A stretch of 64,000 bases of DNA, taken from contig JADHMQ010000001.1 of the NCBI GenBank assembly GCA_016779935.1, forward strand, positions 128,369 to 192,368. Reading direction: 5' to 3'. Shown here one piece after another: positions 1,762 to 59,970 of the stretch. Under the pieces are notes generated by a model. That model was not told the origin of the DNA and ran no database searches. It saw only the letters and a program-made list of their open reading frames with translations. The DNA is from Flavobacteriales bacterium. GTDB taxonomy: Bacteria; Bacteroidota; Bacteroidia; Flavobacteriales; UBA7312. Numbering within the stretch: position 1 is the first letter of the stretch; each line of letters starts with the position of its first letter. The position numbers were made by a program, and so were the translations under genes.

Positions 1762-3813
1762 ATGAAACAGATAACAACACTAATAGCATTAGCACTAAGT
1801 CTGGGGGTATTCGCACAAGATGTTGCCTTCAAGAAAGGAAATTTCAAAGACGATAAAGACGGTCTAGAAAAGGCTAAAATAAATATCGCAGAGGGCGATG
1901 TTTTCCTCGAGAAAGGCGAGCAAAAAGTATTGGCAATGGTCAATGCCTTTGAGGAATTTGGAGAAGCCTTAACGTTTTATTTACAAGCACAAGACTTTAA
2001 CCCTAGTAATTCGGACTTGAACAGAAAGATAGGACATGCTTACCTCTACACTAATACCCCTTATTTGGCGATGCCTTTCTTGAAAAAGTCCTTAGAGTTG
2101 GGAGGAGACGATTCAGAACCTTTTGTTCATTTCTTATTGGGAAAAGCCTATCAGCTAGAAAGGGATTTTGAAGCGGCAGAACGTGCCTTTAAGAAATATG
2201 GCACTTTGGAAAACCCTAAAAAGCTAGAAGTTTATAAAAAACTAAATAGGAAGCAAATCAAGGAATGTAAGAATGGGGCTGAAATATTTGGTATTAAAAC
2301 GAGGGTATGGGTCGATAATGTGAAAGAGCTAAACTCTCAACAAGACGAGATTGCACCTAGTATTACTGCCGATGGAACAGAGATTATCTTTAACAGTAAC
2401 AAGACGGGCAACTTTGACATTTACACTGCCGAGCGTAAAAAAAGAAAATGGGTGCGTTTATCTTCCGTTAACAGCTTGAATACTGAGGGAGACGATGTTT
2501 CTTCCAGTTTAGCCTATGACGGACAGCGATTGCTACTATTCAAAGATACTGACGGTCAGAGCGATATTTACGAATCCAAACTAAACGGAACGACTTGGGG
2601 AGAGCCTAAACTCAAGATGTCCAAAGTGGTGAATGTGGAAGGTAACGAAACCTTCGCTTCTTATGATCCACAGGATATAAAAGTCTATTTCGTAAGTGAC
2701 GGTGGCTTTGGTGGTGACCAAAACATTAACTTCAGTGGAAAGAAAGATATGGAGGAGAAGTTTTGGGGGCAATCCCAAAGTGCAGGACAAGAGGTTAATA
2801 CCGGTTTCCAAGAAGGCTCGGTTTATATGGCACCAGATGGCAACACCATGTATTTTTGTTCCCAAGGGCATTCTTCCATTGGAGGCTATGACGTCTTTGT
2901 AACGTATAGGAATGAAGAACTTGGCTTGTGGGGTAAACCCATCAATATGGGATATCCCATTAACACTCCATTTGACGAATTATACTTTAGCATTTCTGCT
3001 AATGGTAAGAAAGCCTATTTCGCTTCCAACAGAGACGGTGGAACAGGAGGAATGGATATTTACTGTGCTACCTTTTGGGGAGAACCTAAGAAACCAACTG
3101 TAGCTTCTGAAGATAACCTCATTGCCAGTATTGCTTCACCCATAGAAGATACCTACACACCAGAAACGGTTGAGGTCACGGTAGCCAATAGCCTTACCGT
3201 ATTCAAAGGACGTATTTTGGACGGTCTATTGCAAGAGCCGGTAGAGGCAGAGATTAAGATTTTTGACAATTCAACCGGAGAAGTTTATGCCGTGATGCGT
3301 TCCAACAGTGCAACAGGTAAGTTCCTCTTGTCTTTACCTTCTGGACTTAACTACGGTATTTCGGTAGAAGCAGAAGGCTATTTGTTCCATTCGGAAAACT
3401 TCAATTTGCCTAAAGGTTCGGCATACAATATGATTAACAAAGACATAGAGCTGAAAAACATTGACATAGGCAGTAAGATTGCTCTTAGAAACGTTTTCTT
3501 TGACACTGGCAGGGCTGAGGTAAAAATAGATTCTTACCCAGAGTTAGACCGACTCATTCAGTTGATGACCGATGTACCTAGCCTTAAGATAGAGCTATCC
3601 GGACACACCGATAATGTAGGAGGCAAAGTCGCCAATGAAAGCCTTTCACAGCGAAGAGCCGATGCCGTAAGGCAGTATTTGGTATCGCGTTCTGTAGATG
3701 CTAATCGCGTTACCGCAAAGGGCTATGGCTCTAGCCGACCAGTAGATAGTAACGACACCAAAGAGGGCAGAGCCAACAACAGGCGAACGGAGTTTGAGAT
3801 TACCGCCAATTAA
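1762..3813 (+). CDS. OmpA-family outer-membrane/peptidoglycan-associated protein (TPR, TolB-like repeats and a C-terminal OmpA domain)
   Basis: Signal peptide; repeated '...FaSnR.GG.G..DIY' TolB/WD40-like units; C-terminal 'LRNVFFDTGRAEV...GHTDNVG....N..LSQRRA..V..YL...G' OmpA_C motif. Confidence 0.85.
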   Translation: MKQITTLIALALSLGVFAQDVAFKKGNFKDDKDGLEKAKINIAEGDVFLEKGEQKVLAMVNAFEEFGEALTFYLQAQDFNPSNSDLNRKIGHAYLYTNTPYLAMPFLKKSLELGGDDSEPFVHFLLGKAYQLERDFEAAERAFKKYGTLENPKKLEVYKKLNRKQIKECKNGAEIFGIKTRVWVDNVKELNSQQDEIAPSITADGTEIIFNSNKTGNFDIYTAERKKRKWVRLSSVNSLNTEGDDVSSSLAYDGQRLLLFKDTDGQSDIYESKLNGTTWGEPKLKMSKVVNVEGNETFASYDPQDIKVYFVSDGGFGGDQNINFSGKKDMEEKFWGQSQSAGQEVNTGFQEGSVYMAPDGNTMYFCSQGHSSIGGYDVFVTYRNEELGLWGKPINMGYPINTPFDELYFSISANGKKAYFASNRDGGTGGMDIYCATFWGEPKKPTVASEDNLIASIASPIEDTYTPETVEVTVANSLTVFKGRILDGLLQEPVEAEIKIFDNSTGEVYAVMRSNSATGKFLLSLPSGLNYGISVEAEGYLFHSENFNLPKGSAYNMINKDIELKNIDIGSKIALRNVFFDTGRAEVKIDSYPELDRLIQLMTDVPSLKIELSGHTDNVGGKVANESLSQRRADAVRQYLVSRSVDANRVTAKGYGSSRPVDSNDTKEGRANNRRTEFEITAN

Positions 3814-3855
3814 TACTGTACGACTTAACCTCTCGTTAAAAGCTAAGGCTTAATT

Positions 3856-4503
3856 ATGAAGAACCTCTTATTTGATTTGGACGGTACTATTATAGAACCT
3901 AAGGAAGGCATTTTGAATTCCATACGCCATACTGCCCAGAAAATGGGGGTGGTGGCACCCTCCGATGAAACGCTTCATCAGTTTATAGGACCGCCCATTA
4001 TGGAATCCTTTCAGCATAAGTTAGGACTGACTTATGAGCAAGCCTTAGAAGCGGTGGGTTACTTCAGAAGCTATTACGCCCATACAGGCATACACCAAAA
4101 CGCTCTTTTCCCTTATGTAGACGAATTGCTAAAGGCACTGAAAGTAGAAGGCTATACCTTATTCGTGGCGACTTCTAAACCCACACTTTTTGCCAAAGAA
4201 ATACTCAAAGACCATCAGCTGGACACCCTCTTTGTAGAGATAGTGGGCTGCAATATGGACAATAGCCGCAGCGATAAGGCTGAAATCATAGCTTATATTG
4301 TGGAAAAGTACGGACTAGATGTATCCGAATGCCTGATGATAGGCGATACCAAATACGATATTATTGGGGCTAAGAAACACGCTATGCTATCGGTAGGGGT
4401 GAACTACGGACACGGCGATTTCAGTCAGCACATTCCACAGCATACCGTTGACAGTTGTGAGGAGCTAGAAGTATTAATAAAAAAATACTTTCCATTAGGC
4501 TAA
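3856..4503 (+). CDS. HAD-superfamily hydrolase (phosphoglycolate phosphatase-like, subfamily IA)
   Basis: N-terminal 'LFDLDGTI' HAD motif I, 'ATSK' motif II and 'GDTKYDI' motif IV. Confidence 0.8.
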   Translation: MKNLLFDLDGTIIEPKEGILNSIRHTAQKMGVVAPSDETLHQFIGPPIMESFQHKLGLTYEQALEAVGYFRSYYAHTGIHQNALFPYVDELLKALKVEGYTLFVATSKPTLFAKEILKDHQLDTLFVEIVGCNMDNSRSDKAEIIAYIVEKYGLDVSECLMIGDTKYDIIGAKKHAMLSVGVNYGHGDFSQHIPQHTVDSCEELEVLIKKYFPLG

Positions 4504-4623
4504 AAACCCTATATTTGAGGAAAGCCGAAACCCCTCCTTTACCTTACCATTTTATGCAAGTTTTTTATTGAAGATTGACCCTCGCTAATTTTGGCTTGAG
4601 AAATTATTTTTATTTGAAAAAGC

Positions 4624-5319
4624 ATGAAAAAACTGTACACTCTGCTCTTTATGAGCCTGTGCTTTTTGGCATTTAGCCAAGAGCAATTTCCATCCTTTAT
4701 TGATGTTACCGGCACGGCCGAAATGGAAGTTATACCCGATGAAATTTACATTGCCATAACCCTACGTGAGCGTAGCGGAAACAGAGGCACACAGACGGTG
4801 CAAGAGCAAGAAAACGACCTTAAAGATGCCTTACGTTCCTTAGGCTTAGACCTCAAGCGTTTGGAGCTATCCGATGCCAATGCCGATTACATTTCTATAC
4901 GTTGGTTGAACAAAAAGACCATTAGCCAAAGCAGTTACCGTTTTAAAGCCGAAGACGCCTATATGGTGAGCAAGGTCTTTGAGCAATTGGACAAGCTGAA
5001 CATACAAGACGCCTACATTTCAGAGGTTAGCCATTCCAAGATAAAAGAGTACGAAAAAGAGGTGCGAATAAATGCCATAAAAGACGCTAAAGACCGTGCC
5101 GATTACCTCTTGACTGCCATAGACGAAAGAAGAGGAAAAGCTATGGAAGTGTATGAAAACAGAAGTAGCATACAGGCGGTAAGAAGAAAAAACGCTAGGC
5201 ATCAGGTAGAGAGTAGTATTCACCAAATGGTAGATTTATTCAGTGGGGAAGATAACGGCCTACAATTCCAAAAGATTAAACTCCAAGCTTCGGTATTTGT
5301 GAAGTTTGGGATTGAATAA
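4624..5319 (+). CDS. SIMPL (DUF541) domain periplasmic protein
   Basis: Signal peptide, then an 'I.V.G.AE.EV.PD...I.I.L' start typical of SIMPL/DUF541. Family assignment is from memory. Confidence 0.6.
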   Translation: MKKLYTLLFMSLCFLAFSQEQFPSFIDVTGTAEMEVIPDEIYIAITLRERSGNRGTQTVQEQENDLKDALRSLGLDLKRLELSDANADYISIRWLNKKTISQSSYRFKAEDAYMVSKVFEQLDKLNIQDAYISEVSHSKIKEYEKEVRINAIKDAKDRADYLLTAIDERRGKAMEVYENRSSIQAVRRKNARHQVESSIHQMVDLFSGEDNGLQFQKIKLQASVFVKFGIE

Positions 5320-5380
5320 ACACAGCAACCTTAACAATTCATTTCTGATAGCCCTCGAATAGGAATATTAAAGATGAGAC

Positions 5381-6361
5381 ATGACAAAAACATTAAACAA
5401 AAACTTGCACCTAGCAAAGAAAGGAAAGAAAGATGAGTTTTATACTCAACTGGCGGATATAGAAAATGAGCTTAAACATTACAAAGCACACTTTAAAGGT
5501 AAGGTGGTCTATTGCAATTGTGATGATCCACGCATGAGTAACTTTTTCCATTATTTCTCCTATAATTTTGAAGATTTAGGATTAAAAAAACTCATTTCTA
5601 CCTGCTACCAAAACCAAAACCGAGATTTGTTTAGTTCACATGACTCTGAACGTGCTATATACTTGGAATACCATGGTGACCAAAACAACAATCGTGTTCC
5701 TGATATAGACGAAATTGGCGTACAATACCTTAAAGGCGATGGCGATTTTAGAAGTGCCGAGAGTATAGCACTTTTACAACAAGCCGACATAGTAGTAACC
5801 AATCCGCCCTTTTCATTATTTAGAGAGTACGTGGCACAACTCATACAACACAATAAAAAGTTTTTGATTGTTGGAAACCATAATGCCATAACTTATAAAG
5901 AAATTTTTCCTCATATAAAAGAAGATAGAATTTGGTTAGGTTACAAATATGGTGACATGTCTTTCAAAGTGCCTGTAAATTATGAACCTAGAGAAACTAG
6001 ATTTTGGAAAGATGAAAACGGACAAAAGTGGAGAAGTTTTGGAAATATGTGTTGGTTTACCAACCTAGATATCGCTAAACGCCACGAAGACCTGATTTTA
6101 TACAAAACGTATTCTCCTGAAGAATATCCTAAATACGACAATTACGATGCCATAAACATAAACAAAACCAAAGAAATACCTATGGATTATCCTGGTGCCA
6201 TGGGCGTGCCCATTACCTTTTTGGATAAATACAACCCAGAACAGTTTGAGTTAATAGGTAGAATGACAACAACTAAAAAAGATGAATTCAATTATGGATA
6301 TCCTTACATAAATGGAAAAAGAATTTATGCGAGAATTCTAATCAAAAACAAACGCTTATGA
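5381..6361 (+). CDS. N6-adenine DNA methyltransferase, EcoRI-methylase family
   Basis: N-terminal 'KKGKKDEFYTQ...GKVVYCNCDDP' and catalytic 'VVTNPPFSLFREY' (NPPF motif IV). Its stop overlaps the next gene's start (ATGA at 6358-6361). Confidence 0.75.
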   Translation: MTKTLNKNLHLAKKGKKDEFYTQLADIENELKHYKAHFKGKVVYCNCDDPRMSNFFHYFSYNFEDLGLKKLISTCYQNQNRDLFSSHDSERAIYLEYHGDQNNNRVPDIDEIGVQYLKGDGDFRSAESIALLQQADIVVTNPPFSLFREYVAQLIQHNKKFLIVGNHNAITYKEIFPHIKEDRIWLGYKYGDMSFKVPVNYEPRETRFWKDENGQKWRSFGNMCWFTNLDIAKRHEDLILYKTYSPEEYPKYDNYDAININKTKEIPMDYPGAMGVPITFLDKYNPEQFELIGRMTTTKKDEFNYGYPYINGKRIYARILIKNKRL

Positions 6362-7454
6362 ATATAGAACTGAAAGAAATTACCATTCGGGAACTTACCG
6401 AAGGTTATGTAGATAATCAAGAACAAGGTGTAGTGGGCTATGGTGGAAAATTGGATATTCGCCCTCCATACCAAAGGGAGTTTATCTATAATGAGAAGCA
6501 AAGAGATGCTGTCATTCATACCGTTAGTAAAAACTTTCCTTTGAATGTCATGTATTGGGCAGTTAATAAGGATGGTAATTTTGAGGTGATTGATGGGCAA
6601 CAGCGCACTATTTCCATTTGTCAGTTTGTCAATAAAGAGTTTTCAGTGGTTTATGGCGATATTCCACAACATAGGATGTTCAATAATCTTCAAGATGATG
6701 AACAAGAACAAATCTTGAACTATAAATTAATGGTCTATTTCTGTGAAGGTACAGATAGCGAAAAATTAGATTGGTTTAAGGTTATCAATATTGCTGGAGC
6801 AAAGTTAACTGAACAAGAGTTGAGAAATGCTGTTTATTCTGGCTCTTGGCTTAGTGATGAAAACGCTATTTCAGTAAAGTCGGTTGTCCGGCTCAATCAA
6901 TTGGTAGTAACTACTTAAACGGTTCAGCAATACGACAAGACTATTTAGAAACAGCTATTGATTGGTTGTCTGAAGGAAATATTGAGGTGTATATGGCAAA
7001 TCACCAAAACGACCCCAACGCTAACGAATTGTGGTTGTATTTTCAGTCGGTTATTAATTGGGTGCAAGTGGTGTTTCCAAACTATAGAAGAGAGATGAAA
7101 GGCCTAGAATGGGGTGTGTTGTATAACAAATACAAAGACCACGATTTTAATTCTGCCGAATTGGAAAAAGAGGTGTCTCGTCTCATGCTAGACGATGATA
7201 TTAGCAAAAGAGGTATTTATCCATATCTCATTACGGGCAAAGAAAAGCACTTGAGTATTCGAGCATTTTCAGAGGGGCAAAAGCGTAAAAGCTACGAAAG
7301 ACAAAAAGGAATTTGCCCTATCTGTAAGGAACACTTTGAAATTGGTCAAATGGAAGCCGACCATATTACACCATGGCACGAAGGGGGTAAAACCATTGAT
7401 GAAAATTGTCAAATGCTCTGCAAAGAAGATAACCGAAGAAAAGGAGGGAGGTAG
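6358..7454 (+). pseudogene. DUF262 (ParB-like, DGQQR motif) + C-terminal HNH nuclease protein, split by a -1 frameshift in an A-run near 6860-6863
   Basis: ORF 6358-6918 carries 'VIDGQQRT'. ORF 6966-7454 carries the HNH 'EADHITPWHEGGKTIDENCQMLCKEDNRRKG'. Shifting frame at GATGAAAACGC gives a continuous '...SGSWLSD(E)KRYFSKVGCPAQSIGSNYLNGSAIRQDYLETAIDWLSEGN...'. Confidence 0.8.
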
Positions 7455-7458
7455 GAAA

Positions 7459-8700
7459 ATGAATAATATAATTTATAATGAGGACGCAAGAGAACTCTTA
7501 TCTATAGTTGATGAAAAGATAAAAGTAAAGACAACAATTACATCACCTCCCTACTATGATATGAAAGATTACGGCTCAAGTAATCAGGTTGGATATGGAC
7601 AAAGTTATGAGGAGTATCTAAATGATCTTAGTTTAATTTTTGAAAGTGTGTTTAAGATAACAGAGGAAAATGGCACACTTTGGATAATTATAGACACATT
7701 TAAGCGAAATAATCAAGTTGTCACTTTACCATTTGACCTCGCAAATAAATTAAAAGAAATTGGATGGTTGCTTCAGGATATCATAATATGGAAAAAAGAT
7801 AAAACAGTTCCTTGGTCTAACAATGGTTTTATGCAAAGAAAATTTGAATACATACTTTTTTTTTCAAAATCAAAAAAAATTAAAATTAATAAAGACAGAG
7901 TTAGAGTTTTTGATATGACTAAATTAAAAAAATGGTGGATTAAATTTCCTGAAAGGTATAACCCAAATGGGAAAGCCTTAGATGAAGTATGGGAGTTTCC
8001 AATACCAACTCAAGGCTCTTGGGGAAAGGAATACATAAGACATTTTTGTCCTTTACCGCAAAGTATGGTAGCAACAATGATTCAAATAAGCTCAGATGAA
8101 AATGACACTATTTTAGATCCTTTTGCAGGGACAGGCACAGTACTTTCACAATCTGCATATATGAAACGGAATTATATCGGTTTTGAATTAAATAAAAAAT
8201 ACATTTCAATGTTCGAGGAGTATTTAGAAAAAACTTTTTCTAAATATAGAAATGAATATGAGATATTATCTGAAAGCAAAGATCAAAGAAATTTTGAAAA
8301 GCAAATTCTCAATTTAAGATCTTTAAAATTTGCCAGAGTACTAATAAAATGTATTGAAAGTAAAACAGAGTTAAATAATTTCAAAATTTTTGTTACTCCC
8401 AAAAAAGTAAGTAAGCTAAAACACAAACTACTTAAAGTAGAATATCAAATTATTGGACAAATAGATGAAGCTGTTTTTATGAAAGAAATAAAAGAGTTAA
8501 TCGACAAAACACCATTATCGAAATTTGGTATTGAACCAGTGTTCAAATTTATAGAGTTTAAAAAATTCAACAAAAAGCATCATTATGGCTACACCAAATC
8601 TAATACTTATTCATTTGTAAAAAACTCCAATCTTAATTCCCAGAAAATAAGAGTTGTAAGCAAAATTTGTGTTGACTTAAATGAAAATGACTACCTATAA
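7459..8700 (+). CDS. Beta-class (N4-C or N6-A) DNA methyltransferase with uncharacterised C-terminal extension
   Basis: Motif IV 'TITSPPYYD' precedes motif I 'LDPFAGTGTV', which is the beta order. I chose the ATG at 7459, 4 nt after the HNH stop and preceded by a GGAGG-like sequence. The longer ORF from 7336 overlaps the HNH gene. Confidence 0.8.
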   Translation: MNNIIYNEDARELLSIVDEKIKVKTTITSPPYYDMKDYGSSNQVGYGQSYEEYLNDLSLIFESVFKITEENGTLWIIIDTFKRNNQVVTLPFDLANKLKEIGWLLQDIIIWKKDKTVPWSNNGFMQRKFEYILFFSKSKKIKINKDRVRVFDMTKLKKWWIKFPERYNPNGKALDEVWEFPIPTQGSWGKEYIRHFCPLPQSMVATMIQISSDENDTILDPFAGTGTVLSQSAYMKRNYIGFELNKKYISMFEEYLEKTFSKYRNEYEILSESKDQRNFEKQILNLRSLKFARVLIKCIESKTELNNFKIFVTPKKVSKLKHKLLKVEYQIIGQIDEAVFMKEIKELIDKTPLSKFGIEPVFKFIEFKKFNKKHHYGYTKSNTYSFVKNSNLNSQKIRVVSKICVDLNENDYL

Positions 8701-8709
8701 ATTTTTCGT

Positions 8710-10500
8710 ATGGTAAAAAGAAAAACTAGAAAAAAGACTACTAGAAATAAACTTTCTCCACAAGAAAAAGCTTTAAGGAAAGAAAAGAGAGACCAAAGAA
8801 ATGAAATATCAACTATTTTAAAAAATATTGGATTTCAAAGATTGCCATACATAGATGGAAAACACTTTGAGTATGATAATCGAAAAACGGAAATGGATGA
8901 TATTTTTATAAATGAAAATATCATCCTACTTGTGGAGTATACTATTGGCAATCCAAAATATCATTTATTTACAAAGAAAATATTCTATGATAAAGTAAAT
9001 TCTAACAAAAGAGCTTTTATTGCTTTTTTATTAAAAGAAGAAAAATTAAAAAGCTTCAAAAAATATTATGATGAGAATATTGAAGGAATATATTCACAAA
9101 ATGAATTAAGATTACAAATCTTATACTGTTCAAAAAAAACCATCTCAGAGGAGCATAAAAATACCGTGTCAAATGTATATTTTTTTGATTATCACATTGT
9201 ACAATATTTTAAGAGCTTAACTAAAGCTATTAAAAAATCTAGTAAATATGAATTTATGGAATTCCTTGAAATTCCATTCGAAGATTTTGGTTCAAATATT
9301 AAAAATTCTTCTTCAAGGAATTCACAAACCTTTAAAGGCAATATTTTGCCCGAAGAAAAAAGTAAATTTGACGAAGGATATAAGATTGTTTCATTTTATA
9401 TAGATGCAGAATCTCTATTGAGAAGATCTTATGTTTTAAGACAAAATGGTTGGAGAGACATAGAAAATGTTGGACATTATCAGCGCATGCTAGAAAAAAG
9501 TAAAATATCTAGTATGCGAAGGTATTTATCTGAAAGAAATAGAGTTTTTATTAATAATATAATAGCTACAATATCTACAGATAAAATCAAACTTTATGAT
9601 AAAGACAATAATCACTTGATAATTGGTAATAATGGTCAGTTTATAGGAGATAATTCAACAGAAATATCACCTACGAGAATAGAAATTAACGATTCATGCA
9701 ATATAATTGGTTTAATTGATGGTCAGCATAGAACATATGCCTACCATGAAGGGGATGATCAATTTGAAGATAAAATTTCAGAACTAAGAACCGTTCAAAA
9801 TTTATTAGTTACGGGAATATTATTCCCTAAGAATGAGACCAAAGTAAATAGATTGAAGTTCGAGGCTAAACTTTTTTTAGAAATTAATACTAATCAGAAA
9901 AATGTTCCATCTCAAATTACTCAAGAAATTGAACTAATGACAAGTCCTTTTTCTACTATTGCTATTGGAAAAAGAATAATGTTAGGTTTAAATAAAAGTG
10001 GTCCTCTCGGAAATATGATTGAACAATACTGGTATGAAAAAGGGAAAGTTAAAACTGCTTCAATTGTTAGTTTTGGTTTAAGACCACTAGTAAAAATTGA
10101 GGACTTAAAAGCAAGGGATAGTCTTTTTGTCATTTGGAATAATCCCGATAAATATAAATTGAAGCAAAAAGATAATAATGAGTCTGAACTACTTAATGAA
10201 TACATAAAATTTTGTGTTGAGAAAATCAGAGATTTATTAATCGCTTTAAAAATTAATTTAGACGATGATCAATGGGAAACATATAGTCACGGAAATCCCA
10301 GAGGATTACTTTCAGTGATATTTGTAAATGGCGTATTGAATGTTTTAAGATTATTAATTAAACATAACAAAGTTTCAACATTAGAAAATTATAAAATAAA
10401 ATTAGAAAACATTAATAAATTTGATTTCAAACAATTTAAATCAAGTCAATATAGAAAACTAGGAGAAGCTATTTTTAATCAATACTTCCAACTTGAATGA
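8710..10500 (+). CDS. DGQHR-domain (DndB-like, ParB/Srx superfamily) protein with a basic tail and an unknown N-terminal domain
   Basis: 'IIGLIDGQHRTYAYHEG' followed by 'FLEINTNQKNV' resembles the DGQHR/DndB signature. The N-terminus is highly basic (KRKTRKKTTRNK). The gene is very AT-rich and starts 9 nt after the methylase stop. Confidence 0.7.
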   Translation: MVKRKTRKKTTRNKLSPQEKALRKEKRDQRNEISTILKNIGFQRLPYIDGKHFEYDNRKTEMDDIFINENIILLVEYTIGNPKYHLFTKKIFYDKVNSNKRAFIAFLLKEEKLKSFKKYYDENIEGIYSQNELRLQILYCSKKTISEEHKNTVSNVYFFDYHIVQYFKSLTKAIKKSSKYEFMEFLEIPFEDFGSNIKNSSSRNSQTFKGNILPEEKSKFDEGYKIVSFYIDAESLLRRSYVLRQNGWRDIENVGHYQRMLEKSKISSMRRYLSERNRVFINNIIATISTDKIKLYDKDNNHLIIGNNGQFIGDNSTEISPTRIEINDSCNIIGLIDGQHRTYAYHEGDDQFEDKISELRTVQNLLVTGILFPKNETKVNRLKFEAKLFLEINTNQKNVPSQITQEIELMTSPFSTIAIGKRIMLGLNKSGPLGNMIEQYWYEKGKVKTASIVSFGLRPLVKIEDLKARDSLFVIWNNPDKYKLKQKDNNESELLNEYIKFCVEKIRDLLIALKINLDDDQWETYSHGNPRGLLSVIFVNGVLNVLRLLIKHNKVSTLENYKIKLENINKFDFKQFKSSQYRKLGEAIFNQYFQLE

Positions 10501-10522
10501 TAAATATTGCTATCCCCACTAA

Positions 10523-10541
10523 CACGAGCATCTTGCTCGTG
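10523..10541. terminator. Hairpin between convergent genes (possible bidirectional terminator)
   Basis: CACGAGCA-TCT-TGCTCGTG is a perfect 8-bp stem, but there is no clear U-tract on either side. Confidence 0.35.
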
Positions 10542-10555
10542 CTACATAAAATTCC

Positions 10556-11224
10556 TTAAAGCAGACTCTCCCCATCCGCGTTAGTGGTCAGCACGGCACT
10601 CATAAAATCCACAAAGGGGCGTACGGCTTGTAGGGCACTATCTATTTGGTCTATAAAGTTTGGGCTGCTAACATCTTTCTCTGTATAGCGTTTCATAAAA
10701 ATATGCTGCTTATGGCGCAATAAATCAATATTGGGGTGGTCTTTGGCAAAGCCCTTGGGGGTTGTTTTTACGGCGTCGCCTTGGAGTTCGCCCCACACGC
10801 TTTTAAAGTTAGGGTCGTTTATAATGTTGCGGTATTCATCGCCATCCACGGCCAGTTCTTGGCGAATACGTTTTAGGTCGTCTGGGTTGGGGTCCCAAAA
10901 GCCACAGGCCAAAAAAATATCATTGGGTTTTAGGTGCAAATAATAGCCGCCGCGCAGCTCGGGTTTGCTGCGTTGCCACGCCATACCAAAATGGGTTTTG
11001 TAAGGCGTTTTGTCTTTGGAAAAACGCACATCTCGGTAAATGCGAAAGACCTTAAAACGGTCTATGCTATCGTGCTTATTGAGTTTTTCTTCTAAAGCAA
11101 CACCAAACTGCTTTACAGTGGCTTCTAGGGCTTTAAACTCAGCTTTATGCGCCTCAAACCACTCTCGGTTGTTGTTTTGTTCCAGTTGTCTAAAAAAAGA
11201 AAAAATGTCAGGGGTCAGTTGCAT
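10556..11224 (-). CDS. DUF2461 (TIGR02453) family protein
   Basis: 'F..L..NN.REWF...K..F' N-terminus and 'FRIYRDVRFSKDKTPYKTH' core, as I recall for this family. Confidence 0.75.
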   Translation of the reverse strand: MQLTPDIFSFFRQLEQNNNREWFEAHKAEFKALEATVKQFGVALEEKLNKHDSIDRFKVFRIYRDVRFSKDKTPYKTHFGMAWQRSKPELRGGYYLHLKPNDIFLACGFWDPNPDDLKRIRQELAVDGDEYRNIINDPNFKSVWGELQGDAVKTTPKGFAKDHPNIDLLRHKQHIFMKRYTEKDVSSPNFIDQIDSALQAVRPFVDFMSAVLTTNADGESLL

Positions 11225-58065: not shown

Positions 58066-59970
58066 TTATGATACCCAATACAGTTTCTTTTCCTCGTTAA
58101 ATGCGATTTGCCCGTTATCACTTAAAAACTGTAATACTTCTATCATTTTATCTTCTCTAAATTCTACAATTTTTAAGATGATTTGATCAACCGACATAGG
58201 CTCTTTTTCAATCAATTCCTTTATGGCATTCATAATGATATCAAATTCTTGGTTACTGATTTTCAACTTGTTTTTTTCAAGGCAAACATCGCACTTTCCA
58301 CATTTCTCCAAAGTGTCATCTCCAAAATAATCTTGAAGAAAGCTACTTCTACAATAGTGTTGATTGCTGACATACTCTATAACCGAATTTGCTTTATATT
58401 CTTCGTTATTTTTTCTCTTTACTAAAGACTCTTTAGAAATGCTAAGGTTTTTTGCTTCAACTCTTTGTTTTAGGAATAGTATTTTGGGGTTGCTGTTTTG
58501 TGGTATATAATCCAAAATATCCATTTCCTTTAATTTCTTCAAAAGGCTTTTTACTTCTTGGGTAGTGAGTTGTGCTCGTTTGGCAATAATGCTCTCTTGT
58601 ATTTTTGTGAAGGCTTCAAATAGCGTTCCATATGAACGAAGCAATATTTTAAGCATTAAATCATACGCTTTGTTAGCAATTTGAAATTGGTATAGTTCAG
58701 AATGAGAAACTTTAAAATGTATTCGTGAAGGTTGATTTATTGCTTCACTTAACTTAATATATTCTTCCCTTTCTAATAGTTTGAGCGTATTAAACGTTTT
58801 GAGATAATTTAAAGAATATTTTTCGCAGAACTCACTAATGTGGAAGGGGTGTTCAGAGTACTGTCCGCTACCACTTGCAATTCCATAGTAGTTTGCTAAT
58901 TGTTGATAGACATTCCTTATTTCTTCAATATCAGGATAATGATTTTCAATGTCTTTTTTTAATTCGTGTACATCTAGTTTATTGCATATTACGATAGCAT
59001 AGGAAAGTTTTTTATCTCTTCCAGCTCTTCCAGCCTCTTGGTAATATGCTTCCAAAGAAGAAGGGATGAAGTTATGTATAACGAGTCTGACGTCAGGCTT
59101 ATCAATTCCCATTCCAAAAGCATTGGTAGCTACCATAACTCTGACATGATTAAGTAGCCATTGTTTTTGTTTTGACTCTCTATCAACGATGTCTAAGCCT
59201 CCATGATAGAAATGGGATGAAATCCCATGTTCTGATAAAAGAGTGTGAACTCTCTTAGTTTCCTTTCTAGTTCTACAGTAAATTATTGCTGACCCCTTTA
59301 CTCTGTTCAAAACCTGAATAATCTTACTATCTTTCTCTTCTTGATCAAGTACTACATATGAAAGTTCTTTCCTGTAAAAACTACTTTTAACAACTTTTTT
59401 AGTTCTAAACTCTAGTTTCTCTTGTATATCTTCTACAACAGTTTTTGTTGCTGAAGCCGTTAAAGCCACTATTGGAGCGTCGCTTATCTTTCTAATGTTT
59501 GAAATTTTGAGGTACGATGGTCTAAAATTATAGCCCCATTCTGAAATACAATGGGATTCGTCTACAGCTATGAGGTTAATATTCATTTTTTCAAGCCTCA
59601 CTTTCACCATTTCATTTTCCAGACGTTCTGGAGAGAGGTATAAAAACTTATAGTTTCCATAAATGCAGTTATCTAGAGTGATATCTAATTCAGAATGAGA
59701 CATTCCAGATGTAATAGCAACAGCTCTAATGTTTTTAGATTTAAGTGTATTAACTTGATCATTCATAAGGGCTATAAGAGGTGATACAACTATACAAATA
59801 CCTTCCATCATCATAGTAGGGACTTGAAAGCATATGGACTTTCCTCCTCCAGTAGGTAATAGCACAAGAGTGTCATTACCTTCAAGAATTGAATGAATAA
59901 CATCAAGTTGAGAACTTCTAAAAGAATCAAAGCCCCAATATTGTTTCAATATTTTTTCTGGACTTAACAT
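58066..59970 (-). CDS. recQ: RecQ-family ATP-dependent DNA helicase
   Basis: 'WGFDSFR..Q', 'LPTGGGKS', 'AVDESHCISEWGYNFRPSY' and 'ATNAFGMGIDKPDVR'. Confidence 0.9.
   Translation of the reverse strand: MLSPEKILKQYWGFDSFRSSQLDVIHSILEGNDTLVLLPTGGGKSICFQVPTMMMEGICIVVSPLIALMNDQVNTLKSKNIRAVAITSGMSHSELDITLDNCIYGNYKFLYLSPERLENEMVKVRLEKMNINLIAVDESHCISEWGYNFRPSYLKISNIRKISDAPIVALTASATKTVVEDIQEKLEFRTKKVVKSSFYRKELSYVVLDQEEKDSKIIQVLNRVKGSAIIYCRTRKETKRVHTLLSEHGISSHFYHGGLDIVDRESKQKQWLLNHVRVMVATNAFGMGIDKPDVRLVIHNFIPSSLEAYYQEAGRAGRDKKLSYAIVICNKLDVHELKKDIENHYPDIEEIRNVYQQLANYYGIASGSGQYSEHPFHISEFCEKYSLNYLKTFNTLKLLEREEYIKLSEAINQPSRIHFKVSHSELYQFQIANKAYDLMLKILLRSYGTLFEAFTKIQESIIAKRAQLTTQEVKSLLKKLKEMDILDYIPQNSNPKILFLKQRVEAKNLSISKESLVKRKNNEEYKANSVIEYVSNQHYCRSSFLQDYFGDDTLEKCGKCDVCLEKNKLKISNQEFDIIMNAIKELIEKEPMSVDQIILKIVEFREDKMIEVLQFLSDNGQIAFNEEKKLYWVS

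Follow-up and report, generated by a model that had tools for sequence, protein, structure and literature searches.

The window analysed here, that is, the whole stretch of 64,000 nucleotides (nt), comes from the genome assembly of a Flavobacteriales bacterium (GCA_016779935.1, contig JADHMQ010000001.1, positions 128,369 to 192,368 of the forward strand). Its positions 5381-10500 hold four reading units, placed between a SIMPL gene and a DUF2461 gene. A sequence-only reading had described these units as a compact four-gene island made of two modules, each pairing a DNA methylase with a protein that bears a ParB/sulfiredoxin (Srx) domain. Module 1 (5381-7454) consists of M1 and R1, and module 2 (7459-10500) of M2 and P4 (Table 1). 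According to the open reading frame (ORF) calls, all four units lie on the plus strand and are tightly packed: M1 and R1 overlap by the ATGA at 6358-6361, and only 4 nt (7455-7458) separate R1 from M2 and 9 nt (8701-8709) M2 from P4. Three of the four ORFs and all junctions were as described; the second gene, R1, turned out to be frameshifted at about 6859/6860. The motifs NPPF, DGQQR, SPPY and DGQHR were located at the claimed places, and the domain calls held in hidden Markov model searches: EcoRI_methylase in M1, DUF262 and HNH in R1, N6_N4_Mtase in M2, and the DGQHR domain (TIGR03187) in P4. We concentrate here on module 2, which belongs to an uncharacterised yet widespread family and most likely works as a restriction-modification (R-M) system.

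Table 1. Features of the SIMPL-DUF2461 slot and its surroundings (window positions; aa, amino acids)
Feature	Position	Strand	Description
M1	5381..6361	+	326-aa EcoRI-family N6-adenine-type DNA methylase, intact; NPPF at residue 141 (5801-5812)
R1	6358..7454	+	DUF262 (DGQQR 6592-6606) + HNH type II restriction endonuclease, pseudogene
M2	7459..8700	+	413-aa beta-class DNA methylase; SPPY 7543-7554; C-terminal extension of about 150 aa
P4	8710..10500	+	596-aa DGQHR protein, proposed restriction endonuclease of module 2
P4 N-terminal domain	8710..9294	+	residues 1-195, predicted PD-(D/E)xK-like nuclease
P4 codons	8896-8898, 8935-8937, 8974-8976	+	D63, E76 and K89, respectively
P4 DGQHR (ParB/Srx-like) domain	9391..9957	+	residues 228-416
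P4 DGQHR-domain motifs	9481-9486, 9718-9732, 9874-9888	+	QR, DGQHR and FLEIN, respectively
P4 C-terminal helical domain	9958..10497	+	residues 417-596; KxKxKT 10039-10056, SSQY 10441-10452
Variable slot	5320..10555	.	between SIMPL gene and DUF2461 gene
SIMPL gene	4624-5319		left flank of slot
DUF2461 gene	10556-11224	-	right flank of slot, convergent with P4
Hairpin CACGAGCA-TCT-TGCTCGTG	10523..10541	.	8-bp GC-rich perfect stem, RNAfold -11.9 kcal/mol

The methylase of module 2, M2, matches PF01555 N6_N4_Mtase (2.3e-43, residues 23-253) as well as many PADLOC MTase_II models, and its C-terminal extension received no family assignment in the domain searches. The nearest solved structures are M.MboIIA, 2zie and the N4-cytosine methylases 8s9m and 8s9n. 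Since the SPPY motif is typical of N4-cytosine methylases of the beta class, it suggests that the product may be N4-methylcytosine. Homologs of M2 bear generic names only, and at about 25 loci a full-length one immediately precedes the P4 homolog. Translation of M2 could also start at an in-frame ATG at 7399, which would give a protein of 433 aa and make the gene overlap the 3' end of R1 by 56 nt; this start was used by the gene call in a Logan assembly of the same locus (L044, described below). The N termini of the homologs, which are 417-421 aa long, favour the ATG at 7459.

Homologs of P4 are numerous: 965 were found in a database clustered at 90%. The 120 best of them are mostly about 585-605 aa long and 63-100% identical to P4, and they span Bacteroidota, Calditrichota, Patescibacteria and other phyla. 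Where the source gives them a name, it is mostly 'DGQHR domain-containing protein', otherwise 'hypothetical protein'. A library clustered at 50% contained 514 representatives of the family at E <= 1e-3 and 187 at E <= 1e-30, mostly full length and of the same architecture, down to 29% identity. For the survey of loci, one genome per species was retained, which gave 36 genome loci with a full-length P4 relative; two plasmids and one temperate phage were added, for a total of 39. The genome loci also cover Acidobacteriota, Fusobacterium, Bacilli, Desulfurivibrio, Pseudomonas, Aliiglaciecola, Mesorhizobium and Thalassovita, and the range of the family includes gut Bacteroides, Porphyromonas, rhizobial plasmids and an Akkermansia phage.

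A DNA methylase adjoins the P4 homolog in 36 of the 39 full-length loci, so that the pairing claimed for module 2 recurs well outside the window. At about 31 of the 36 genome loci, it is an N6_N4 methylase encoded immediately 5' of the P4 homolog in the same orientation, mostly at a distance between -20 and +14 nt. Two rhizobial plasmids likewise carry the methylase and the P4 homolog in tandem. In Aliiglaciecola (L026), the partner of P4 is a divergently transcribed fusion of a helix-turn-helix domain and a methylase, with the motif DPPF. In the temperate Akkermansia phage Chantilly (ON453895.1, L125:1519-4625), the cassette is convergent and lies beside an integrase; the P4 homolog there, of 31.5% identity, carries the annotation 'hypothetical', and the 423-aa methylase has the M2-family motif TTITSPPYFDMKDY. 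The linkage was seen, in other words, in three gene orientations: tandem, divergent and convergent. SPPY was found in 27 genome-locus partners and in the 3 plasmid or phage partners, that is, in all readable N termini except that of Aliiglaciecola. We mention in passing the Phyllobacterium zundukense plasmid NZ_CP017943.1, on which PLSDB RGI labels the DGQHR gene (L127:3851-5677) as 'lmrP, MFS antibiotic efflux pump', apparently a spurious call of a resistance gene.

Not only are the two genes neighbours, their divergence is also correlated: when the identity of each homolog to its counterpart in the window is compared between M2 and P4, r is 0.97 across 30 loci and 0.93 for the 24 close loci alone. 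Around 30 cassettes, neither a third conserved gene nor synteny of the flanks between loci was found, and the pair therefore behaves as a mobile two-gene cassette. The 97 nearest neighbour proteins are mostly housekeeping, with 3 integrases. The sequence-only reading had raised the embedding of the pairs in defence islands; no such enrichment was found around these 30 module 2 cassettes. Nor did its compact four-gene unit extend to other genomes, as M1 and R1 homologs were present in none of the 38 genome loci fetched with P4.

At three loci, the P4 homolog is inactivated and the frame of the methylase is open. The inactivating events are a nonsense codon (L006), the insertion of an IS4/5-family element (L035) and two frameshifts (L036). 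Loss of P4 with M2 kept is how a toxic R gene usually decays, and would make P4 the toxic partner of the pair.

The organisation of P4 was then deduced from conserved residues and from structure prediction. The protein scores above the cut-off of TIGR03187 DGQHR (1.2e-18; 67.9 bits, cut-off 58.85). Across 15 aligned sequences, the most distant at 36% identity, 91 residues are invariant, distributed in three blocks. The N-terminal block includes D63, N70, E76, T78, H85 and K89, with D-x12-E spacing. The central block comprises Q258-R259, R278-VF-NN, D337-G-Q-H-R341, QNLL-TG and F384-E-...-LFLEIN393-..Q396, where QR, DGQHR and FxxxN are signatures of the DGQHR domain (PMC4619093). The C-terminal block has K444, K446, K448, T449 and S578-S-x-Y581. 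When the whole protein and its N- and C-terminal parts were compared with Pfam at E-values up to 10, only DGQHR/DndB was found. A profile search of PDB sequences at E-values up to 1 returned nothing, and the C-terminal domain has no match in Pfam or PDB. A HEPN-like R-x4-H in the C terminus (R547...H552) was considered and rejected, as it is not conserved in homologs.

The AlphaFold2 (AF2) model of full-length P4 has a predicted local distance difference test score (pLDDT) of 72 and a predicted template modelling score (pTM) of 0.48. It is confident at residues 17-190 and 460-596, the latter segment being helical (pLDDT 80-93). Foldseek gave only sub-significant matches with this model because of its poor inter-domain geometry, and the N-terminal domain was therefore refolded alone. 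Its 204 residues then reached a pLDDT of 85.9 and a pTM of 0.81, with an alpha-beta4-alpha core, and the top Foldseek matches in PDB were all PD-(D/E)xK nucleases (probability 0.94-0.99). They were the restriction-like endonuclease (RLE) domains of R2 retrotransposons (E = 1.2e-3, probability 0.98), Bax1, Cdn1 (probability 0.99), the R.BspD6I small subunit, Can2, Nt.BspD6I, AF1548 and cap-snatching endonucleases. In BFVD, the matches were PDDEXK, 'restriction endonuclease', DUF2726 and endonuclease I proteins. In the model, one strand begins at D63, and the strand after it ends at E76-x-T78. The D-x12-E spacing, together with a lysine on the downstream helix, resembles the R2 RLE motif (PD...D/E...K).

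These results modify the earlier picture of the two ParB-like proteins, in which they occupied the position of a missing restriction endonuclease. Each of them has a nuclease domain of its own, HNH in R1 and a predicted PD-(D/E)xK-like domain in P4, and they would thus be the endonucleases rather than stand-ins. Their ParB-like domains had also been presented as related through the DGQ(Q/H)R motif. Profile-profile comparison with hhalign aligned them only at DGQxR, with a probability of 5%, and close kinship between the two domains is therefore not claimed.

We consider it probable that module 2 is a self-contained two-gene R-M cassette, with P4 as the cognate restriction enzyme. M2 would methylate a specific site in the host DNA, perhaps on the N4 position of cytosine as SPPY suggests. 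The N-terminal domain of P4 would cut incoming DNA that is unmethylated, a role proposed from its fold and its invariant acidic residues. The DGQHR domain may bind or hydrolyse nucleoside triphosphates (NTPs), and so gate or license cleavage. We propose such an NTP switch because NTP-stimulated behaviour is known for the DUF262 domain of GmrSD, BrxU and SspE (PMC4619093; PMC12707154), and because a DndB-like protein binds ATP and GTP (bioRxiv 10.1101/2025.10.10.680097). More speculatively, the helical C terminus might add DNA or site recognition.

A bolder version of this proposal, which we put forward as a tentative idea that may well prove wrong, is that P4 represents a new NTP-dependent restriction class. 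A ParB-type clamp or switch, and not a helicase or AAA+ motor, would couple recognition of the unmethylated site to cleavage. For example, P4 could load at the site, close on NTP, slide, and cut on collision or dimerisation. If true, this would extend the CTPase-clamp principle of ParB to classical methylation-protected restriction.

Several points weigh against the view of P4 as a cognate restriction enzyme. Direct observation covers the gene structure and domain content, the conservation and co-variation of the pair, its mobility and the decay of the R gene; nuclease activity, protection by methylation and NTP dependence are inferred. P4 has no match to a known restriction enzyme profile (PADLOC) or, by sequence, to a solved structure. 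The Foldseek matches have borderline E-values (1e-3 to 1e-1) and low TM-scores (0.33-0.40), for which reason the PD-(D/E)xK-like fold of the N-terminal domain is rated as likely, not proven. In P4, a threonine (T78) occupies the place of the canonical (D/E)xK lysine; K89 or H85, on the following helix of the model, may substitute for it. The AF2 model is poor in the DGQHR core (residues 242-282 and 337-362, pLDDT below 50). Finally, three loci depart from the simple pair: at L023, P4 is intact and the methylase lacks its N-terminal third and SPPY with it, an AAA_14 ATPase domain being fused there or standing in its place; at L033, the nearest methylase is 4.4 kb from P4 and is paired with a BglII-like enzyme; and at L027, two extra genes separate the methylase from P4.

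These three loci deserve a short description. The first (L023:116-3782) comes from RUG112, a rumen Prevotellaceae metagenome-assembled genome (MAG), and is either the sole apparent case of a broken methylase with an intact P4, or else a misassembly. The L033 locus (2611-9710), from a Sediminibacterium MAG, has a P4 homolog of 46% identity that lacks its own methylase. Ahead of this homolog lie an SPPY methylase and BglII-like pair, a split superfamily 2 (SF2) helicase (ResIII, Helicase_C) and a NOV_C protein, a setting that is defence-island-like. The L027 locus (4423-10455), from Bacteroidetes bacterium RIFCSPLOWO2_12_FULL_35_15, contains a P4 homolog of 51% identity within a same-strand cluster of five genes: SPPY methylase, 549-aa GHKL ATPase (HATPase_c_3), 300-aa protein of no known family, P4, and 248-aa protein likewise without assignment. 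This cluster may be an expanded variant of the module 2 system.

A P4 homolog without its own methylase in a defence-type neighbourhood, as at L033, is what could be found if P4 were an effector of the GmrSD, BrxU and SspE sort, either modification-dependent (type IV-like) or acting by abortive infection. The best-studied ParB-like nuclease fusions, which combine DUF262 with a His-Me domain, are indeed modification-dependent or phosphorothioate-sensing (PMC4619093; PMC12707154). The methylase would then not protect against P4, and might instead mark self DNA to some other end, or serve as a decoy or an antitoxin. However, type IV enzymes are characteristically devoid of a cognate methylase, whereas P4 is accompanied by a linked, co-varying one in 36 of 39 loci and in three orientations. 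A type IV enzyme beside an active methylase would also risk cleaving the DNA of its own host, and the loss of P4 with retention of M2 fits classical R-M. We therefore judge this explanation unlikely.

Slightly less credible still is the possibility that P4 does not restrict at all and is an accessory or regulator of M2, comparable to DndB or DpdB. It would act as an NTPase that loads, limits or transcriptionally controls M2, and the pair would form a modification-only (epigenetic) module. P4 does share its DGQHR domain with the ATP-modulated repressor DndB (PMC4507180) and with DpdB (PMC12839542), which aids DpdA as an ATPase, and it gives weak matches to the DndB, DGQHR_dnd_1 and DpdB models. 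These matches are nevertheless all far below the family cut-offs, and the 596-aa protein could not be kept as DndB-like in the sense of the sequence-only reading. As DndB, it scores 24.2 bits with PF14072 (gathering score 29.1) and 35.7 with TIGR04172 (DGQHR_dnd_1; cut-off 450); as DpdB, it scores 24 bits with NF041060 (cut-off 300), and the PADLOC DpdB match is weak. Nor are there dnd or dpd genes in the window or among the neighbours. No window protein matched Dnd, and the 25 Pfam families seen most often in the 97 neighbour proteins include no dnd family; the only Dpd-type match in the window comes from a RecQ-like gene 48 kb away, through its helicase core. In addition, a conserved nuclease-like domain (invariant D63, E76 and K89) would be idle in a pure regulator, and repeated pseudogenisation of P4 alone is unexpected for a harmless helper.

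The least plausible alternative, a single integrated system with two methylases and two effectors, could invoke the common strand, the overlap, the 4- and 9-nt gaps and the absence of an intervening terminator, but it is very hard to reconcile with M1/R1 homologs in 0 of 38 P4 loci, M2/P4 homologs in 0 of 3 R1 loci, modules that differ in G+C content (GC; 0.361 versus 0.271), and the fact that R1 is a pseudogene.

Module 1 is a system of the known type II R-M kind. M1 matches PF13651 EcoRI_methylase over the entire profile (1e-141, positions 1-345 of 345), and PADLOC MTase_II PDLC03297 (6e-137). The first frame of R1 (6358-6918, 186 aa) covers the DUF262 part and ends with a TAA stop at 6916-6918, and the HNH half is in a different frame (6966-7454). 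The frameshift is due to the deletion of 1 nt at about 6859/6860, where the window reads GAT G-A AAA CGC and intact homologs have SWV(S/T)DAKRYFSK. Once repaired, R1 is 365 aa long and contains GmrSD_N/DUF262 (2.7e-19) and HNH (PF01844, 6.8e-12). It also matches PADLOC REase_II PDLC03418 from end to end (3e-141, protein 1-363, profile 1-370 of 372). More than 8000 homologs of R1 were found; all of the 120 best listed are intact, 359-367 aa long, and aligned to 100% of repaired R1.

The frameshift is probably real, because the same deletion is present in a separate Logan assembly (L044, run SRR12042686), which is 100% identical to the window over 6333-10736, deletion included, and in which the gene caller also split R1. 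Against this, it could be a read-level error if both assemblies share reads. The copy of module 1 found here is non-functional, as its endonuclease frame is broken, and M1 is therefore left as a solitary (orphan) methylase, a routine case of R-gene decay. The pair itself recurs elsewhere: at three loci out of a sample of only three, from the unrelated genomes of Winogradskyella, an Anaerolineales MAG and a Hyphomicrobiales MAG (L039, L040 and L041), the R1 homolog is immediately preceded by an M1 homolog of 63-66% identity. In the Anaerolineales MAG (L040, 3032-3995), the M1 homolog upstream of the intact R1 homolog appears as two tblastn pieces overlapping at 3723-3730, with no gene called, which suggests a frameshift or an assembly error.

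A methylase-coupled DGQ(Q/H)R effector had been presented as a system not known to be described. For module 1 this does not stand, since its full-length matches to type II profiles mean that PADLOC, whose R-M models are derived from REBASE reference enzymes, already lists the ParB-like/HNH endonuclease with its coupled methylase under type II R-M. A named prototype enzyme of this family was not identified from the literature, REBASE being outside the search. For module 2 the claim stands, as neither a profile nor a paper was found. The fixed P4-type architecture of three parts (predicted PD-(D/E)xK-like nuclease, DGQHR and helical C-terminal domains), paired with an SPPY methylase, is undescribed in PADLOC-DB 2.0, NCBIfam 20, Pfam, PDB and the source annotations, a set that does not cover REBASE. 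A full-text literature search on DGQHR, PF14072, DndB-like and ParB-like restriction returned no description of a methylase-DGQHR R-M pair. REBASE may list P4-family proteins as putative enzymes. The general idea is not new, given the acceptance of the module 1 fusion as type II and a comparative genomics survey of 2013, which noted that the ParB-like domains COG1479/DUF262/DGQHR are often fused to HNH, PD-(D/E)xK or HEPN nucleases and are linked to R-M (PMC3632139).

The place occupied by the two modules was examined as well. The identity of the SIMPL and DUF2461 flanking genes was confirmed, and the metagenome contig L049 (Ga0209555_10000803) is syntenic with the window on both sides of the slot. 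Its gene order is ArgK-EamA-DUF2461 ... SIMPL-HAD-OmpA, and its flanking proteins are 60-92% identical to those of the window. The slot of this contig (10670-12275) measures 1.6 kb, has a GC of 0.21-0.28 and carries a different cargo. This consists of a 289-aa protein with a weak PLD-like match (PF13091, 1e-4, under the gathering score) and a 203-aa hypothetical protein that belongs to no family. Since the low-GC cargo differs, the SIMPL-DUF2461 slot is a variable hot spot; the comparison suggests recurrent integration without an obvious integrase.

Base composition separates the two modules. Module 2 has a GC of 0.271, and 0.18-0.23 at third codon positions (GC3), which is below the minimum (0.316) of the 529 other 3-kb windows within the 64 kb. 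Module 1, at 0.361, is level with the mean of the whole window (0.367), and its immediate flanks are richer in GC (0.41-0.47). The foreign composition attributed to the island is thus clear for module 2 only; the hand counts of 16, 27 and 36 G+C per 60 bases on which it had been based were exact. We conclude that both cassettes reached the slot by horizontal transfer, and are placed head to tail and mutually independent.

As had been reported, no integrase or transposase was found in the island, and flanking direct repeats, when sought, gave nothing meaningful, with none above chance. No tRNA gene was found at the island. A promoter and terminator scan of the island gave nothing above chance, with no terminator between the four genes. 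The right edge is marked by a hairpin between the convergent P4 and DUF2461 genes (Table 1), which was missed by the terminator scan because it is without a T run, and which may be a bidirectional terminator.

Profile scanning of the window proteins revealed no other convincing defence system in the remainder of the 64 kb. The RecQ-like gene mentioned above (58069-59970, minus strand) encodes a 634-aa helicase with PADLOC DpdF and PsyrT matches of up to 2.9e-131. These concern mostly the helicase core (residues 5-362) and were judged unrelated; it is probably a housekeeping gene with no tie to the island.

The interest of module 2 is both practical and mechanistic. Restriction enzymes are a main source of new DNA-cutting chemistries and tools, and a nucleotide cofactor is dispensable for most known type II enzymes. 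Defence annotation in its current form, here the PADLOC models, leaves the P4 cassette unlabelled; its characterisation would fill a gap in the catalogues of R-M and defence families and provide a tractable two-gene model of ParB-fold NTP switches that control nucleases. The cassette may, in addition, account for barriers to genetic manipulation in Bacteroidota.

The closest known counterparts are the DUF262-HNH type II R-M systems, that is, the PDLC03418 family with its EcoRI-family methylases. Module 1 belongs to them, its two genes following the same order and being tightly coupled. Module 2 shares their logic, a cognate methylase with a ParB-like domain fused to a nuclease. In those systems, however, the nuclease is HNH and C-terminal and the ParB-like domain is DUF262, whereas P4 has an N-terminal, PD-(D/E)xK-like nuclease domain, as predicted, and a ParB-like domain of DGQHR type, plus an extra C-terminal domain of about 180 aa.

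GmrSD, BrxU and SspE provide the model borrowed for P4, namely a ParB/Srx-fold NTPase with DGQ(Q/H)R, fused to a DNA nuclease that is stimulated or gated by NTP. Unlike P4 and R1, which are tightly paired with methylases, these proteins have no cognate methylase and attack modified DNA. The nuclease domains also differ: DUF1524 (His-Me) in GmrSD, BrxU and SspE, PF01844 HNH in R1, and probably PD-(D/E)xK-like in P4. Membership of the GmrSD/BrxU group was rejected for R1 on account of its HNH domain, which is not DUF1524, and its conserved methylase partner, and for P4, which matches neither DUF262 nor DUF1524. With DndB and DpdB, P4 has the DGQHR domain (TIGR03187) in common. The N-terminal nuclease-like domain of P4 was not found described for either of them, and the constant partner of P4 is a methylase.

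The PD-(D/E)xK nucleases R2 RLE, Bax1, Can2-Cdn1 and R.BspD6I are the best structural matches to residues 1-195 of P4. Their identity to it is only 10-15%, and none is fused to a ParB-like domain. Finally, type III and type ISP enzymes, McrBC, and CglI/NgoAVII couple nucleotide hydrolysis to restriction, and all but McrBC do so with cognate methylation. Their motors are SF2 helicases or AAA+ proteins, whereas the only candidate NTPase of P4 is its ParB/Srx-fold domain, a fold that in ParB serves as a switch or clamp and not as a translocase.

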